Assembly: GCA_046757025.1 (NCBI GenBank)
Contig: JBHHXN010000053.1
Location: 1-30,172 of the forward strand
From: a bacterium
GTDB taxonomy: Bacteria; Zhuqueibacterota; Zhuqueibacteria; Oceanimicrobiales; Oceanimicrobiaceae
Reading direction: 5' to 3'
DNA length: 30,172 nucleotides
Positions within the stretch are counted from its first letter, which is position 1; each line of letters opens with the position of its first letter. Shown here piece by piece: positions 21,053 through 30,172 of the stretch. The position numbers and the translations under genes were made by a program. The notes under the pieces were generated by a model. The model was not told the origin of the DNA. It saw only the letters and a list, made by a program, of their open reading frames with translations, and did no database searches.

Positions 21053-22945
21053 ATGATCAAACTCCATCGCCTGAATAGAAACAACGAGCGAGGAAGAAAA
21101 TTAAGACACATCATTTTTTTGGTTGGGTTGTGCAACTGGCAATTCATGAACTGTACCGGCAGCGTACCGGATGATCTGATCCTGGAATCGCAGCCGGCAG
21201 GCATCATTTTTGTCAAGGCCACCCGCACGAATACCCTGAACAGTTTTTCACGCGGCGGCAATCTTTTTTCGCTAATACCGGCCTCCCCGGATGGTAAATT
21301 GACCAATCTCACCAATTTGGAGGCGGGCGACGTGGCCGATCCGGAGATTTCCTTCGATGGCCTGAAAGTTCTGTTTGCAATGCGCCGAAACAGCGGTGAG
21401 CGCTTTCATATCCACGAAATGAACGTGGACGGTTCTGGGCTGCGTCAGCTCACTTTTGACGCGGTGCGGGATGATTTCGACCCCACTTACCTGCCCAACG
21501 GCAAAATCCTATTCACGTCTAATCGCCCCGGTTTTATCGATGAATATAACAAGCAAAATGCGGAGGTCATGCACGTCATGGAGGTGGACGGCTCGAATAT
21601 CGAGCAGATATCGTTCAATGCCAGCGACGATTTCGATCCCATCGTCACCAAAACCGGGCACGTTGTTTACACGCGCTGGGAGCATCATGGGCCCATCAAC
21701 CGATTCCCATTGTTCATCACCAATCCCGATGGCCACGGTACGTTTACCTTTTTCAGTCCGCACAATCATCGAACTTTTTTCCATCCGCGGGAGCTGGCCG
21801 ATGGTTCCATCATCGCGGTGAAATCGAATATGGTTAACGGCGATCGCGGGCCGCTGGTCATCATAAAAAATACTTCTACGGCTGGCGAGCCGTTGGAAGA
21901 GGGGTTCATGGAAATCATCACGCCAGAAATCGAATTGAACGGCCCGCCCTACAGCAAAGGCGTATTTAAATATCCCCATCCCCTGCCCGATGGCCGGATC
22001 TTGGTGTCGTATTCTCCGCCGCACACCAGCAGTGAGGAGGCGGACTACGGTCTTTACACCCTCAACACGGATGGCAGCGATTTAAAACTGCTCTACAATG
22101 ACCCGCAATTTCAGGAGTTCGACGCCGTGGTCATCGGCGACCGCGCTATTCCGCCGGTCATCAATTCGAAGCTGGACAAAGCGCAAACCACCGGCGTGTT
22201 CACGGTGCAGAATGCTTATTTCCGTCAGGAGCGAGACGGCCAGGTGCGCCCCGATCAAACCATCCGAGAAATCCGACAGGTCATGGTGATCGAGGGGATG
22301 GTGCGCCCCAAAGGCGACCGCGCGCCTATCGGAATGACCAATTTCGAACAGAAACGTATTTTGGGTGTGGCGCCCGTGCAAACGGACGGCTCCTTCTCCA
22401 TCAGAGTGCCGGCCAATATTCCGCTGTCGTTCAATACGCTGGATTCACTGGGCCGAGCCCTGGTGGTGAAACGAAACTGGGTCACTATTCGACCGGGAGA
22501 ACATTTCGAAAAGTGCAGCGGCTGCCACGGACCCCGCGGACGCAGCTCGAACAATCCGAATCCGCTGGCAGCCTCTTTGCCGCCCACCGACCTGAACGTA
22601 CCGGCGGCGCAGCGAGAGGATGTCAGTTTTGGCACGGCTATCGAGCCCATCATCGCGGCAAAATGCACCGGCTGCCACAGCGGGGCGGCGCCCGCCGCCA
22701 ATTTACCGCTGACTTTGACGAAAGATGAAAATGACGGGGCCTTCTCAGTAGCGTACGTTCGTCTACTGGAAGACAGCGGTTATGTGCGAGCGCCCTTTTC
22801 GCGCAGAAGCAAATTGATCGAACGATTGCTGGGGCTGGGCGACTACCAGGCCAGAGGGCCACATCCGGCGGGAGAACAGACATTAAATTCGGACGAAGTA
22901 CGCAAATTCATTAACTGGATCGACCTGGGCGGGCAATATCGATAG
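21053..22945 (+). CDS. Hydrazine-synthase-alpha (HzsA)-related lipoprotein: PD40/TolB propeller, HzsA middle domain, two CxxCH heme motifs
   Basis: AGGAGG RBS; probable lipobox FMNC; DPEISFDG, DFDPTYLPNGKILFTSNR, YTRWEH; LGVAPVQTDGSFSIRVPANIPL...LDSLGRA; CSGCH (22514-22528) and CTGCH (22664-22678); C-terminal WIDLG. Confidence 0.85.
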   Translation: MIKLHRLNRNNERGRKLRHIIFLVGLCNWQFMNCTGSVPDDLILESQPAGIIFVKATRTNTLNSFSRGGNLFSLIPASPDGKLTNLTNLEAGDVADPEISFDGLKVLFAMRRNSGERFHIHEMNVDGSGLRQLTFDAVRDDFDPTYLPNGKILFTSNRPGFIDEYNKQNAEVMHVMEVDGSNIEQISFNASDDFDPIVTKTGHVVYTRWEHHGPINRFPLFITNPDGHGTFTFFSPHNHRTFFHPRELADGSIIAVKSNMVNGDRGPLVIIKNTSTAGEPLEEGFMEIITPEIELNGPPYSKGVFKYPHPLPDGRILVSYSPPHTSSEEADYGLYTLNTDGSDLKLLYNDPQFQEFDAVVIGDRAIPPVINSKLDKAQTTGVFTVQNAYFRQERDGQVRPDQTIREIRQVMVIEGMVRPKGDRAPIGMTNFEQKRILGVAPVQTDGSFSIRVPANIPLSFNTLDSLGRALVVKRNWVTIRPGEHFEKCSGCHGPRGRSSNNPNPLAASLPPTDLNVPAAQREDVSFGTAIEPIIAAKCTGCHSGAAPAANLPLTLTKDENDGAFSVAYVRLLEDSGYVRAPFSRRSKLIERLLGLGDYQARGPHPAGEQTLNSDEVRKFINWIDLGGQYR

Positions 22946-22983
22946 GCTTTTTATATTTCGCTATTTCCGTTTCAAAAAAAAAT

Positions 22984-23135
22984 AAACTTGTGTAAAAACT
23001 CAGTACATCGAATGAAAAAGAGACACCCCTATTGTCATTCTGGAAGAATCTTTTTAATAAACAGCACCTTGCGACAAATTTAATAAGTTACTTTCAGAAT
23101 AACAAAAACGAAGGTTATGGGTTTTTACGCAGTCT
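22984..23135. mobile_element. Degenerate MITE-like element with terminal and internal inverted repeats
   Basis: aaacttgtgtaaaaactc vs reverse complement of 23119-23135 (agactgcgtaaaaaccc); inner tgtcattctggaag (23033-23046) / ctttcagaataaca (23091-23104), 12/14 complementary. Confidence 0.5.
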
Positions 23136-23208
23136 GAAATAATGTGGAATTATATCAATCATGAAAACATTCGATTACTCTGATACTGAAATATTTTCAA
23201 ATAAAAAA

Positions 23209-23448
23209 ATGCACACCACGCAATTGACTAAACTCCTATTTTGGTTTATTTCGTTTATACTTTCGATTTTGTTCGTCCTGAACGGCTGTGCCGCCGTGCG
23301 ACCCTATGAGCGCGAATACCTGGCGGATCGCATCATGCGGTTTGATTCCGACCGCGAAGAAATGGTGATGGAGCGGCATTTTATCGAAACGCGCGAAGGC
23401 AGCATTGGCGGTTTCGGCGGCGCGGGCGGCGGCTGTGCTTGCAATTAG
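23209..23448 (+). CDS. DUF4266 family lipoprotein (alternative start 23161)
   Basis: Lipobox LNGC, VRPYEREYLADRIM, REGSIGG and terminal GGGCACN, all characteristic of DUF4266. Confidence 0.88.
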   Translation: MHTTQLTKLLFWFISFILSILFVLNGCAAVRPYEREYLADRIMRFDSDREEMVMERHFIETREGSIGGFGGAGGGCACN

Positions 23449-23503
23449 AAAAGTGTCTAAATAAAAGGCAGTTTAGTTATAAATGGATTATTAGAAAAAA
23501 AAT

Positions 23504-24616
23504 ATGCAAAAAGTCGTGCTCAAATATTCAGTGGTCTGTTCAGCTGTCCTGTTCTGGGTCTCAACCCTGCAATCAGACGATAAAATCAGTCTGCGCACCA
23601 ATATTTTCAATGACAATTCCGGTACATCGGTGCACTCACCGACAGTGGAAATTGTCAAAGATATTTTGCTGAACAGCCTGCTTTCTGTTCGCTACAGTCT
23701 GGACCGGGTGCTGATTCCACCGGTGCGGGGTCTTTCTGCCACGCCATCGCCGGTGGATGGCGTGACTGGAGCCTCCCGGCCCATCAGCCAGGACCAGCCC
23801 GGCAACCAATCGTTTGTCAAAGAACGCAATGAAATCATCGTCGGCCTTACGGCGCCGGGTTTTGATCTTAGTTACTACTTTAGCAAGGAGAACGATTATG
23901 TGGGTCAAATGGCCACGTTGGCCGCGAATTTTGATTTCAATCAGAAAAATAGCAACCTGTCGCTCAGTTATGGTTACGGCTGGGATCGCATTGAACCCCT
24001 GGGCGCCGATACCCTGCACACGAAATCCACGCATCATTTCAATTTAACCGTGACGCAGGTTTTGAACAAAAAAGTCATCGCTCGTGTCGGCGCCGATCTG
24101 TCGCTGGTGTCGGGTTTTCAAAGCAATCCGTATCGGTCGGTTTTTGCGGAAGGACAGCATCGTTTGGAAATTCATCCGGTGAATCGCAAACGCGCAGCCG
24201 TTTATTTAAAGGTAAACCGGTACTTCAAAACCAGAACGTCTCTCAACATGGGTTACCGCTTTTATCGAGATAACTGGCAAATTCAGTCGCACACCGTGGA
24301 TATATTTTATCACCAATACTTCAGTGAAATCGTTCTCATTCGCTATCGTTATCGGTACTACGTTCAGTCCGCGGCTTATTTTTATCGCAGCGCGTACACC
24401 GTTTCACAGGCGTTTATGACTTCGGATTATAAGCTGGAACCGTTTACCTCACACTTGTTCGGTTTAAAACTGGAGTACCGTCTGCAGGATCTGGTTCAGA
24501 ACAGTCTTTTGAATTTTCTCGCAAAGGCCACTTTTGACGCCAAGTACGAGCGTTATTTTTCATCCAATGAGTTTACAGCGGATGTTTATCAGATCGGGCT
24601 GGTATTCAATTATTAA
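23504..24616 (+). CDS. DUF3570 family outer-membrane beta-barrel protein
   Basis: VDGVTGAS, SKENDY, GFQSNPYR, YRFYRDNWQIQSHT, RYRYYVQSAAYFY, SDYKL; directly downstream of DUF4266; C-terminal aromatic residue. Confidence 0.85.
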   Translation: MQKVVLKYSVVCSAVLFWVSTLQSDDKISLRTNIFNDNSGTSVHSPTVEIVKDILLNSLLSVRYSLDRVLIPPVRGLSATPSPVDGVTGASRPISQDQPGNQSFVKERNEIIVGLTAPGFDLSYYFSKENDYVGQMATLAANFDFNQKNSNLSLSYGYGWDRIEPLGADTLHTKSTHHFNLTVTQVLNKKVIARVGADLSLVSGFQSNPYRSVFAEGQHRLEIHPVNRKRAAVYLKVNRYFKTRTSLNMGYRFYRDNWQIQSHTVDIFYHQYFSEIVLIRYRYRYYVQSAAYFYRSAYTVSQAFMTSDYKLEPFTSHLFGLKLEYRLQDLVQNSLLNFLAKATFDAKYERYFSSNEFTADVYQIGLVFNY

Positions 24617-27263: not shown

Positions 27264-27325
27264 AGACACGTTTCATTTAAAAGACTTTTAAGAGCCCCCT
27301 TTATCCCTCCTCCTAATTGAGCCAG

Positions 27326-27351
27326 AGGCCCGGGTCATCCGATTCGGGCCT
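27326..27351. terminator. Hairpin between convergent genes (probable terminator)
   Basis: AGGCCCGGGT-CATCCG-ATTCGGGCCT, 10-bp stem including two G-U pairs, followed by AT-rich sequence. Confidence 0.45.
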
Positions 27352-27492
27352 TAAATTTTAATTGAATTATTTTTTGAGCAGCCGTTTAGAAAGAACGGTT
27401 CCTGCTTTCAAGAGTCCTGCGTATTACCATCTCCACATAGTCAGTTTTATTTGATATCAACAAACTGGAATGAAGGTGAGAAGTTGCAACCG

Positions 27493-28164
27493 TTATTTTT
27501 GAGAAAGGTCGGGTTCTTCGCCGGTCTCCTTGTATTGCGTCAGCCATTTTTCGGTTTCCTCCAAAGCCGGTTTGAATCCCCACGGTCCGCGTGCCGCCGC
27601 AACCGCCAGTTTGCCGTCTTTGCGCACGAGGTACAAACGATCGGGATGGGCTCGATAGGCTTGGCTCACTTTGTTATCCATATTGTCGATGAGGCAAGGA
27701 ATGGTCACTTTTTCTTCTTTCATCATCATCTCGGCGGTGGTGCAGCGCTGACTGTAGTCTTTGGCCTCGTTGATTCCCAGGTCAATGGCATAAGGCACCG
27801 GCCGGCTGTCGTCAGCGGCATGCGCTTCGTTAATGTACACGATGCGGAATTCTGCGATATCCTTGTAGTCGGTGTACATTTTTTGCATTTTCCCCAACTG
27901 GGAACGAAACGGCGGTCAGGTATAGCTGCCGAAAAAAAGCACCACCGGCCGCTTATTTCTGAAACTGGCCAGGTCGGTTTCATCTTTACCATCCAGAGAG
28001 AGCAGTTTAAAGAGCGGCGCCGTGTCGCCGACTTTGGGGGCGTCGTCATTTCGGTTCGTTCGTCCTGGTCTTGCGGGCCGTTTAAAATTGCGTTGCGCAA
28101 AAACCTCGTCGCTGACGTATGTTGCGGCAAGAAAAAATATGAATAAATAAACGAAATGTTTCAT
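27493..28164 (-). CDS. Iodothyronine-deiodinase-like (thioredoxin-fold) selenoprotein, 223 aa, in-frame UGA = Sec at codon 83
   Basis: ORFs 27916-28197 and 27493-27897 are in the same frame and separated only by TGA (27918-27916). Read-through gives KRPVVLFFGSYT-U-PPFRSQL, then VYINEAH, DNMDN..AY.AHPDRLYLV and GPWGF, all deiodinase motifs. GGAG RBS before ATG 28164; signal peptide. Confidence 0.9.
27888..27909 (-). promoter_or_regulatory. Bacterial SECIS-like hairpin
   Basis: After UGA-CCGCCG: UUU(CG)UUCCC-AGUU-GGGGAAAA; 16 nt separate the UGA from the apical loop, which has G at its second position. Confidence 0.65.
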
Positions 28165-28278
28165 GGTCCATTTCTCCGGCATCAATTTAAAAAACAAAGC
28201 TTATTAGGACAGTTCAGGTTTCTAATTAGACACTGGTTTCGTCAATTTTATTTAAGCGATTTGAATATAGATGGTATT

Positions 28279-29001
28279 TTATTGATCGATTTCTCGGCCT
28301 TTTAAACCAGTAGCCTTTTCTACCGCCCATACTCCGAGATAGCACAGCGGCGTATCCAGTGCCGCAATCACGACTTTGATGAGGTAAACCCCCAGTATGA
28401 TGTGCATCAAATCAGCAAAATTGCCGTTGAAAACCGTTGGGTTTTTATAGAGGAAAACGGTGTTCACCGTGAACGAATCCACAAATTGCGAGAGCATGGT
28501 GGAACCGTTATTTCGCAGCCAGAGATGTTTGCCTTTTGTCTGGCGTTTCCAGAAATGAAACAGGCGCACATCGATGAGCTGTGCCAAAAGGTAGGCAGCC
28601 ATGGAGCCAAAGAGCAGCCGCCAGATGGGGCCAAAGATGTTGGTGTAATCCTTCTGTAGGGGATAAAAACGGGCCACGGGCAGCGCGATGCCGATCAAAG
28701 AAAACAGCAACAAAATCACGCTCATGCAGAATCCCATAATGACCAGAAAGCGCGCCCGCCTGGCGCCATACATTTCCGAAACAATGTCCGTAACCAGAAA
28801 CGTCAAAGGGTACCAGATGATGCTCACGGGTAAGGTACGACCGTAAATGGTGAACAGTTTTACCCCGACGGTGTTGGTCAAAATCACAAACGTCACGAAC
28901 ACCGCCATCATTCCCGCGAAAATAATCTCGTAGCGGTTGGCTAAAGCGGGTGAGTCGAAGGCCGGATAGAGAAGTGGTCTCTGTGTCGTGCCCTTGTTCA
29001 A
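28279..29001 (-). CDS. yhhQ: Queuosine precursor transporter (YhhQ/DUF165, Vut_1 family)
   Basis: YPLTFLVTDIVSEMYGARRAR, SMAAYLLAQLIDV, LWLRNNGSTMLSQFVDS, KVVIAALDTP; multiple TM helices; GGAG RBS before TTG. Confidence 0.9.
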   Translation of the reverse strand: MNKGTTQRPLLYPAFDSPALANRYEIIFAGMMAVFVTFVILTNTVGVKLFTIYGRTLPVSIIWYPLTFLVTDIVSEMYGARRARFLVIMGFCMSVILLLFSLIGIALPVARFYPLQKDYTNIFGPIWRLLFGSMAAYLLAQLIDVRLFHFWKRQTKGKHLWLRNNGSTMLSQFVDSFTVNTVFLYKNPTVFNGNFADLMHIILGVYLIKVVIAALDTPLCYLGVWAVEKATGLKGREIDQ

Positions 29002-29018
29002 GAATCGTTACTCCGTAT

Positions 29019-29576
29019 TTAGTAGAGCCGTTCTTCCAGAAGCCGCGGTAGAGCCAGCGGTTTTTTCAGAAACCGGCGCAGGGTTAAGATTTGACTGAGG
29101 TGGCGTTCGCCGTGGTCGGCATACATTTCCAGCAGGTTTCTCAGCGTCAAGAGTCCCCATTCGGGATGGCAGCCGCTTTTCTGCCAGTCCTCGGAGTTGG
29201 CCTGTTGAAATAACTTGCTGTTGTTGAGTCGCACGCTATCGAACAAAATCAGGTAGCTGTAGAACGATTTGCTGTTGAGCTCCCGGTAATTCAAGGCTTT
29301 GGCCCAGGCATCTTGATCGTAAACCGAAAATGTACAGCCCGGTTCGGCATAAGTTTGTTTGATGCGGGCAGCGCCCATAATTTCGGCATCCGCCAGGTGG
29401 ATGACCAGCTCCTGAATGCACCATTTGTCGGGCACCGGTCGCATTTTGAGCTCGGACTCGGTTAACCCCTCCACAGCTTGCCGCAGCCTTTCCGGAGCGG
29501 CTGCATAAACCGACAGCAATTCATCGTGGCGGTATTTTTCATAGGTTTGCGGATATTTGGGATTTTTAACACTCAA
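29019..29576 (-). CDS. DinB family protein
   Basis: RPVPDKWCIQELVIHLADAE, YDQDAWA, HPEWG, HGERHLSQI; AAGGAG RBS favours TTG at 29576. Confidence 0.88.
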   Translation of the reverse strand: MSVKNPKYPQTYEKYRHDELLSVYAAAPERLRQAVEGLTESELKMRPVPDKWCIQELVIHLADAEIMGAARIKQTYAEPGCTFSVYDQDAWAKALNYRELNSKSFYSYLILFDSVRLNNSKLFQQANSEDWQKSGCHPEWGLLTLRNLLEMYADHGERHLSQILTLRRFLKKPLALPRLLEERLY

Positions 29577-29650
29577 AAGTAAAACTCCTTTTATTTGCAA
29601 TTTGAAAATTGATTTGGTGAGTTGATTACTTCGCTTCAACTCTGCTGTAA

Positions 29651-30085
29651 TTATTTTTTGAGCTTCTCCAGTTCTAAAATGCGATTTTTAATTTCAGCAG
29701 GCAGCGATGCTTTTCTGTTTTCTTGGTAGTTGAAAGAAACGATGGTGCCTTCTCCTTCTGCGGCGATTTTTTGCCTGTTCTGACTGATGATGCAATACTC
29801 CATAAAAAATCGATCAGATTCGACATTTGCTGCTCTTGCACAAGCATAAACCCGGTCGGGATAAGACAAGGGAAATATGAATTTGCAGCGAGTGGAAGCT
29901 AAAATCGGTCCTATGCCGGTTTGCTGCATGATATCCATATATTTAATTTTTTCAAAATAAGCGATGCGGACACTTTCAAAATATCGAAAATACACGATAT
30001 TGTTCACGTGTTGGAACGCGTCCATTTCGCCCCAGGCAACCGGTATCTCGATAACAACAGGGTACTTCGTTAAAATTTCAAGCAT
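29651..30085 (-). CDS. Acyl-CoA thioesterase (4HBT/YbgC hot-dog fold)
   Basis: VAWGEMDAFQHVNNIVYFRYFE motif; AGGAAGG RBS before ATG 30085. Confidence 0.9.
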   Translation of the reverse strand: MLEILTKYPVVIEIPVAWGEMDAFQHVNNIVYFRYFESVRIAYFEKIKYMDIMQQTGIGPILASTRCKFIFPLSYPDRVYACARAANVESDRFFMEYCIISQNRQKIAAEGEGTIVSFNYQENRKASLPAEIKNRILELEKLKK

Positions 30086-30172
30086 GATGAACCTTCCTGA
30101 GTGTAAATACATTAAATTGCTTCCGCATACTGCGTGGGAATCCAGCACGAGAGATAAGCCTGGCCGCTGCTG

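Follow-up and report, generated by a model that had tools for sequence, protein, structure and literature searches.

Bacterial deiodinase-like selenoproteins entered the literature in 2005, with bacterial SECIS elements, Cys homologues and a suggested redox role (Zhang, Fomenko, Gladyshev; PMC1088965). Another 22 sequences followed from GOS in 2008, in a table that gives no motif (PMC2398784); an EF-hand fusion was described in 2021 (PMC9402790), and a Dictyostelium homologue is known (PMC2375036). Reviews list the family under the motif UxxC and give its function as unknown (PMC9312934, PMC13188914), in agreement with the initial annotation of the locus described here, which called such proteins known yet uncharacterised. 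The accessible portions of the literature on bacterial deiodinase-like proteins make no mention of export, of a helix-D cysteine or of abundance in Planctomycetota and KSB1, and those of three further papers (PMC1976440, PMC8143656, PMC13326102) hold nothing specific on the present protein.

The window, a stretch of 30,172 nucleotides analysed as a whole, contains a gene whose product, judged from its sequence, is a new member of this known group of PF00837 selenoproteins. It shares with the described bacterial proteins the PF00837 domain, a UGA at the catalytic column, a bacterial SECIS (bSECIS) in the coding region, Cys homologues and, among its relatives, EF-hand fusions. It differs in having U-P-P-F where UxxC is listed; this clade may already be among the catalogued sequences, and UxxC is perhaps not defining for that family because the 2008 table gives no motif. 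With DIO1-3 (PDB 4TR3, 9H48) the protein has in common the D-insertion fold, S-x-T-U-P-P-F, the Tyr/Glu/His relay and the Arg positions of the substrate-site floor and clamp. Like DIO2, it has no proximal Cys and has a Cys at the helix-D column; like DIO1, it has a Pro opposite Sec. Unlike the animal enzymes, to which it is about 26-29% identical, it has a predicted cleavable signal peptide rather than a membrane anchor, lacks the loop-D Trp, has its distal Cys shifted by two residues, carries the SECIS in the coding region and stands in no thyroid hormone context. Peroxiredoxins of the Tpx/PrxQ (alpha3) type and 1-Cys AhpE share the Prx fold, an aligned catalytic residue and Arg and, probably, a second Cys in the helix after the second Trx strand, whereas the present protein lacks the Pro of Pxxx(T/S)xxC and has a long loop D with an invariant Y-x-x-E-x-H, a Sec and a predicted export signal. 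It cannot be filed as an iodothyronine deiodinase or as a peroxiredoxin. To the published picture our comparison would add an active site of U-P-P-F rather than UxxC, relay positions that appear kept or replaced by tolerated residues, a helix-D cysteine that nearly always accompanies the absence of the proximal one, and an occurrence in 88/301 Planctomycetota genomes, nearly all with genes apparently split by UGA.

The gene and its reading frame

On the minus strand, a frame of 223 codons runs from an ATG at 28164 to a TAA at 27493 (27493..28164), and its translation meets a single internal stop, a TGA at 27918-27916, at residue 83. The initial annotation gave no strand; the plus-strand frame over the same interval has no meaningful product and was rejected. 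The ORF finder returns two ORFs of 93 aa and 134 aa at the locus, and translation bears out the earlier description of same-frame ORFs joined by one TGA within FGSYT*PPF. The other motifs named there, VYINEAH, DNMDN...AYRAHPDRLY and GPWGF, are present as well, except that four residues, not two, separate DNMDN from AY. A putative Shine-Dalgarno sequence, GGAGA, lies 8 nt before the ATG (28173..28177, minus strand). A sequencing error at the TGA had been named as a possible refutation. Contigs of 4/4 runs cover the TGA with the coding region unchanged, all four coming from one study and one possibly being the source of the window itself. The runs holding this DNA are hydrothermal-vent metagenomes from that single study, and no RNA run is among those listed. 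Promoter and terminator scans at the locus gave results at chance level. A 12-bp inverted repeat at 27325-27352 of the window, between convergent genes, is terminator-like on the plus strand, the count of such repeats being at chance level.

The read-through protein scores 108.5 bits against Pfam PF00837 (T4_deiodinase; gathering cut-off 27, profile positions 70-236), the search by which the initial annotation had suggested its assignment be checked. The part downstream of the TGA scores 73.4 bits, the part upstream has no Pfam hit, and the AhpC-TSA score of the read-through protein is 40.7. Among solved structures, mouse Dio3 (E 7e-20) and Dio2 (E 4e-19) are nearest in sequence, with the next at 2e-4, and the TGA falls on the Sec column of these two enzymes. 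An AlphaFold2 model built from a 92-row alignment (pLDDT 87.7) has the Trx/Prx fold with the deiodinase D-insertion. Its first fold matches are PDB 4TR3 and 9H48 (Dio3 and Dio2; Foldseek E 1e-14 and 4e-13), with fold Z values of 22.3 and 21.3 and the next match at 17.1. The best NCBIfam match, NF038285 (deiodinase family protein, a hypothetical equivalog of 347 positions), reaches 149.2 bits over profile positions 174-334, below its cut-off of 250; the N-terminal half of that model is missing from this protein. An Atlas search that started from a natural Cys homologue (P0011) gave PF00837 clusters with automatic names and nothing else. In a quick tree of 150 bacterial rows, built without animal sequences, the clade of this protein comprises 82 rows with an SH-aLRT value of 98. 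Frame, Pfam assignment, conservation and sel machinery together uphold the initial proposal of one 223-aa deiodinase-fold protein with Sec at the UGA.

Selenocysteine decoding

Sequence comparison indicates that the in-frame UGA (27916..27918, minus strand) is almost certainly read as selenocysteine, Sec83, at the catalytic column of Dio3 Sec170 and Dio2 Sec130. We examined 89 loci: this one, five from the family, three from other genomes and the best 80 of 413 metagenome matches. The catalytic column holds TGA in 87/89 and TGC in 2/89, the latter being Cys homologues of the kind that the initial annotation had proposed to look for. Close orthologues in five other genomes of the family all have TGA. 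The sel genes, the other check proposed at the outset, are present in the host genome (94.8% complete), which encodes selA, selB, two selD and one tRNA-Sec (selC), the last being its sole tRNA with a UCA anticodon. One of the two selD genes (G000:C73:3532-4455 and C344:1415-2341) has an in-frame TGA and lies beside selB; the other is of the Cys type and lies inside a 755-aa frame, probably a fusion. Four of the five family genomes have selA, and the fifth (G002) shows selB and tRNA-Sec. In 4/30 loci scanned, the homologue is preceded by a tRNA-Sec that has selA and/or selB next to it. Further homologues lie beside tRNA-Sec, selA or selB (L091, L099, L134, G167:C113); at L134 a selA-like gene is nearby though the homologue has Cys.

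A candidate bSECIS hairpin follows the UGA (27890..27904, minus strand), with a 5-bp stem that pairs +12..+16 with +22..+26, a loop AGUU(G) starting 16 nt after the UGA and G at +18 (27898). The published consensus has a stem of 4 bp or more and a loop 16-37 nt after the UGA with G[G/U] within its first two nucleotides (PMC13188914), and the hairpin matches it in loop distance, loop G and stem length. Taken alone the element is weak: its MFE is -7.2 kcal/mol for 36 nt and -8.4 for 56-63 nt, against -7.5 for the consensus model (PMC13188914), and in short windows its folding (z 0.2 to 1.05) is not unusually stable. Across homologues the signal is strong. G at +18 occurs in 78/80 distinct TGA-downstream sequences, compared with a mean of 46.9 and a maximum of 59 in 1000 rounds of synonymous recoding, and a Gln codon at this site is always CAG (69/69), whereas CAA makes up 122/346 elsewhere. 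A stem of at least 4 bp closing a loop from +17 is found in 76/80 (recoding mean 16.5, maximum 29, 1000 rounds), and stem and G together in 74/80 distinct homologues vs 10.2 in recoding. All 6/6 stem pairs have two-sided changes, and covariation is 0.504 vs 0.221 in shuffled and at most 0.202 in slid alignments, the shuffle test being inflated by relatedness and the structure derived from the same sequences. Both loci with the Cys codon TGC are without the stem.

These data bear on the alternative that the TGA is a true stop, in a pseudogene, between two small genes or through sequencing error, or is read as Trp, which we consider very improbable. In its favour, the local hairpin falls just short of the consensus energy at a z of 0.2, and patterns of this kind are common by chance, a genome-wide screen for TGA plus hairpin having returned at least 1518 loose hits, too noisy to count selenoproteins. 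One genome (G169; 3.2 Mb, completeness not given) has the TGA form with no selB over the cut-off and no tRNA-Sec, and two database proteins (P0129, P0167) have Trp at the catalytic column, possibly where a gene caller translated TGA under another code. Neither a stop nor Trp decoding would account for a column confined to TGA and TGC across the 89 loci, for the G at +18 with its invariant CAG, for a covarying stem that both Cys loci have lost, or for a host with selA, selB, selD and a tRNA-Sec as its only UCA-anticodon tRNA. One homologue within the clade (P0013) has Ser at the catalytic column and is probably inactive. Among the noisy screen hits of the host genome, other plausible Sec sites lie at G000:C2:8374(+), C6:86952(-), C10:48533(-) and C23:38396(-), which may be GrdB/UGSC-like, in a U-G-C motif, AhpD-like and arsenite-methyltransferase-like, respectively.

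Active site, helix-D cysteine and export

Residue numbers relative to Dio3 and Dio2 were assigned by hand, with Sec170 and Sec130 as the fixed points of the sequence alignments. The active site reads U-P-P-F, and no row with Cys at +3 (UxxC or CxxC) occurs among two sets of homologues (0/150 and 0/90). Ser80, Thr82, Tyr110, Glu113 and His115 match the proton relay proposed for deiodinases (PMC11592359); the last three lie in YINEAH (residues 110-115; 27820..27837, minus strand) and correspond to Dio3 Tyr197, Glu200 and His202. In 87 close homologues Ser80, Tyr110 and Glu113 are invariant, His115 is kept in 86/87, and position 82 is Thr in 83 and Ser in 4. Tyr110, Glu113 and His115 are also kept in 90/90 distant Cys-form representatives, a circular count in that the motif was used to pick the rows; Y-x-x-E-x-H occurs in none of 15 Tpx sequences examined. 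Position 134, the column of the solvent-facing His (Dio3 His219, DIO1 His174), is Ala here and, in the close homologues, His in 73, Ala in 7, Pro in 6 and Ser in 1. In human DIO1, T125S and H174A are active while T125A and H174Q are dead (PMC9141512), so the natural substitutions at 82 and 134 match tolerated ones. Ala134 as an argument against deiodinase chemistry was therefore dropped, H174A being active.

Pro174-Asp175-Arg176 (27637..27645, minus strand) matches Dio1 Pro213-Glu214-Arg215 (PMC11592359) at the floor of the substrate site. Pro174, at the thioredoxin cis-Pro column, and Arg176, which aligns with the active-site Arg of Tpx, are each kept in 85/85 non-gap rows. Dio3 has Phe258 where this protein has Pro174; this too was dropped as an argument against deiodinase chemistry, DIO1 having Pro there. 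Arg192 (27589..27591, minus strand) matches Dio3 Arg275, a proposed carboxylate clamp (PMC11592359), and is Arg in 59/87 close homologues. In rows beyond the close clade, Pro predominates at position 134 (26/29 Planctomycetota loci; 60/90 distant representatives) and position 192 is variable, so the fullest likeness to deiodinases lies in this clade. Dio3 Trp207 of loop D is implicated in closure of the substrate site (PMC11592359); Ser120/Arg121 stand at this position here, and the neighbouring column is Trp in 43/87. Ile155 occupies the distal-Cys column of the animal enzymes, with a variable Cys157 (27694..27696, minus strand; 47/87) two residues on.

Tyr81 stands at the proximal-Cys position, two residues before Sec, as the initial annotation observed. 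Its further statement that the protein lacks a proximal resolving Cys, as DIO2 does, holds; a candidate resolving Cys is nevertheless present, namely Cys141 in helix D (residues 137-150; Cys141 at 27742..27744, minus strand), and Cys157 is another. In 147 aligned rows the catalytic residue is Sec or Cys. Of these, 93 carry only the helix-D Cys (137-151), 44 carry only the proximal Cys, 5 carry both and 5 carry neither. A further set of Planctomycetota loci has the helix-D Cys alone throughout (29/29). From 145 distant representatives, 49 that do not span the site and 6 with another residue there were removed; of the 90 used, 3 have the proximal Cys, and 76/87 rows without it have a helix-D Cys. 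The proximal-Cys label changes twice on the quick tree, so this complementarity rests on few independent events. The helix-D Cys occupies column 147 in most of the family and column 141 in this clade, where mouse Dio2, which has no proximal Cys, has Cys189 and Dio3, which has one, has Val.

We think it probable, if well short of certain, that the helix-D Cys, here Cys141, acts as the resolving cysteine. More than 95% of Tpx have their resolving Cys in helix alpha3 (PMC4749874); hhalign to Tpx gives a homology probability of 96% but misaligns the helix-D region, leaving helix D without a match to the Tpx resolving Cys. A structural Cys141-Cys157 disulfide was considered and is unsupported, Cys141 occurring without Cys157 in 36/76. 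Extra conserved Cys residues in such proteins were noted earlier with no role assigned (PMC9402790). DIO2 has no proximal Cys and no identified physiological reductant (PMC11592359), and a search that covered mostly literature other than subscription papers or supplements found no discussion of Dio2 Cys189/Cys192. The helix-D cysteine offers a specific and inexpensive way to probe how DIO2 might be resolved.

Export to the periplasm or surface is predicted from the sequence with high confidence. The N-terminus has a basic start, a hydrophobic core and V-F-A|Q at residues 21-24, a pattern consistent with the cleavable signal peptide (residues 1-23; 28096..28164, minus strand) that the initial annotation had recognised. 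Of 75 homologues with a closed 5' end, 71 show an 11-mer with a hydrophobicity of 2.0 or more ahead of the core, compared with 0/75 for a C-terminal core control; the count is a heuristic rather than the output of a trained predictor. Some relatives are apparent lipoproteins. Relatives also carry EF-hands, TPR-like repeats, YceI or DUF3179 (26/44 long frames scanned) and a small beta domain; accessory domains are lacking in this protein and in most of its close relatives. The host genome has a DsbD-family gene whose product could supply electrons outside the cytoplasm.

Candidate functions and distribution

The initial annotation had suggested either a periplasmic reductive dehalogenase for iodo- or bromo-aromatics or a peroxidase. 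As the best of the readings considered here, though possible rather than probable, we tentatively propose that the physiological reaction is the reductive dehalogenation of an aromatic substrate: the catalytic residues and the likely recycling cysteine are kept, so the enzyme may strip iodine or bromine from aromatics. SelB, bound to the hairpin 16 nt after the UGA, would insert Sec83, and the signal peptide would take the protein to the periplasm or surface. There the selenolate could halogen-bond to the substrate and abstract I+ or Br+, while Thr82/Ser80, fed by Glu113, would protonate the ring; Glu113 would be open to water because position 134 is Ala. Cys141, possibly handing on to Cys157, could then take the part of the Dio1/Dio3 proximal Cys in resolving the oxidised Sec, and a thioredoxin outside the cytoplasm, supplied with electrons by a membrane protein of the DsbD family, would re-reduce it. 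Debromination of PBDEs by deiodinases has been reported in fish (PMC7144113). Several points count against dehalogenation. The family is very common and often multi-copy, so a general redox job would fit better than a rare substrate; the loop-D Trp is replaced, and outside the clade position 134 is mostly Pro and position 192 varies; no gene of halogen metabolism or aromatic catabolism recurs in the neighbourhoods surveyed (below); animal deiodinases need a membrane anchor and a dimer, whereas the N-terminus here, known from sequence alone, resembles a cleavable signal; and the authors of the 2005 paper anticipated that the bacterial members do something else, probably redox chemistry (PMC1088965). 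The same literature search found no assay of the activity of any bacterial member.

An alternative is an exported selenium peroxidase resembling an atypical 2-Cys peroxiredoxin (Tpx), with hydroperoxides or hypohalous acids reduced at Sec83 and the helix-D Cys as its resolving residue. We regard this as rather unlikely, though the fold is Prx-like (AhpE, Bcp and Tpx at Z 15-17), the Prx Thr/Ser and Arg have aligned counterparts here in the Ser at -3 and the conserved Arg176, and helix D appears to follow the same strand as the helix alpha3 that bears the Tpx resolving Cys. The wide, multi-copy distribution would suit a peroxidase, and some JGI names, which are automatic labels, read peroxiredoxin. 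Yet the deiodinases score 4-5 Z units above any Prx, the invariant Y-x-x-E-x-H and long loop D have no role in peroxiredoxins, and the essential Pxxx(T/S)xxC (PMC4749874) lacks its Pro, replaced by Leu76 (Leu in 81/87), though Ser80 meets the T/S. Somewhat more doubtful is an envelope thiol or selenol oxidoreductase, aimed by accessory domains at the repair of disulfides, sulfenic acids, sulfoxides or N-halamines. Homologues fused to EF-hands, TPR-like repeats, a small beta domain, YceI or DUF3179, two of them with a second in-frame TGA in DUF3179, would fit such a reductase, as would the kept cis-Pro column and ResA/TlpA-type folds at Z about 16. It would leave the relay residues unexplained, the CxxC/UxxC motif is absent from both sets of rows, and neither this protein nor most close relatives have an accessory domain.

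As a gene this is an unremarkable member of a known selenoprotein family, obscured by a UGA, and its value is as a test object: the protein is small, single-domain and probably soluble, with its catalytic residues intact, so one assay can address the function of bacterial deiodinase-like proteins, a question dating from 2005. Were it to dehalogenate, the cycling of marine iodine and bromine would gain a new enzyme class, in lineages that carry relatives in some 3 of 10 sampled genomes (88/301), and the protein would point to the origin of animal deiodinases. A more speculative proposal, which we consider unlikely, is that marine and sediment KSB1 and Planctomycetota carry a large and mostly unannotated set of exported, Se-dependent reductive dehalogenases that de-iodinate or de-brominate natural aromatics free of cobalamin and flavin and are recycled through the helix-D Cys, the same Cys of DIO2 (mouse Cys189) possibly being an overlooked resolving residue. 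The Planctomycetota genomes hold 118 matches, with up to 5 copies per genome; a TGA lies within 112/118 by table count, its position having been checked in 29. In the phylum of the host, relatives occur in 12/167 genomes, and 906 clusters were found at E<=1e-10. As the initial annotation predicted, gene callers fragment these genes: 118 of the 120 database matches listed start downstream of the UGA and are fragments without the active site, and the catalytic column of the remaining two holds Cys in one and Ser in the other.

No halogen-metabolism or aromatic-catabolism gene recurs beside the homologues (296 neighbouring ORFs clustered, 78 adjacent ORFs scanned), and the same survey found no conserved partner besides sel genes. 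Upstream of the gene, 28279-30148 of the window (minus strand) encodes a thioesterase, a DinB/YfiT-like thiol transferase and a Vut_1 queuosine-precursor transporter, none of which recurs near homologues in the first clusters of the 296 ORFs or among the 78 adjacent ORFs. Elsewhere in the host genome, PF13486, a family of reductive dehalogenases, partially matches G000:C8:65205-65498 (31.9 bits, profile 207-306), which may encode no more than a related iron-sulfur protein.

Several relatives merit separate mention. Two loci (L079:5932-7848 and L085:4770-6700, plus strand) encode a signal peptide, a deiodinase-like domain with TGA, a small beta domain and a DUF3179 with a second in-frame TGA, directly downstream of selB-selA-tRNA-Sec. 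The second TGA has its own hairpin and 104-111 further codons, and the DUF3179 score rises from 59 bits to 134 on read-through. DUF3179 appears among the catalogued selenoprotein families with the motif UxxC/T (PMC13188914); its motif in these two proteins is U-P-L-V, and the fusion is absent from the selenoprotein table in the accessible part of that paper. One bacterial Sec homologue (L051; G168:C7:18806-19294) combines a signal peptide with complete motifs of the animal type (proximal Cys, EAHPxDGW) and is, by its motifs, the best candidate for true iodothyronine-like activity. At another locus (L035; G058:C68), a peroxiredoxin-like frame has an in-frame TGA in a U-x-x-C motif. In the window itself, positions 21053-24616 (plus strand) encode a 630-aa protein that has c-type heme motifs and, in its middle, a hydrazine-synthase-alpha domain; genes for DUF4266 and DUF3570 proteins come next.
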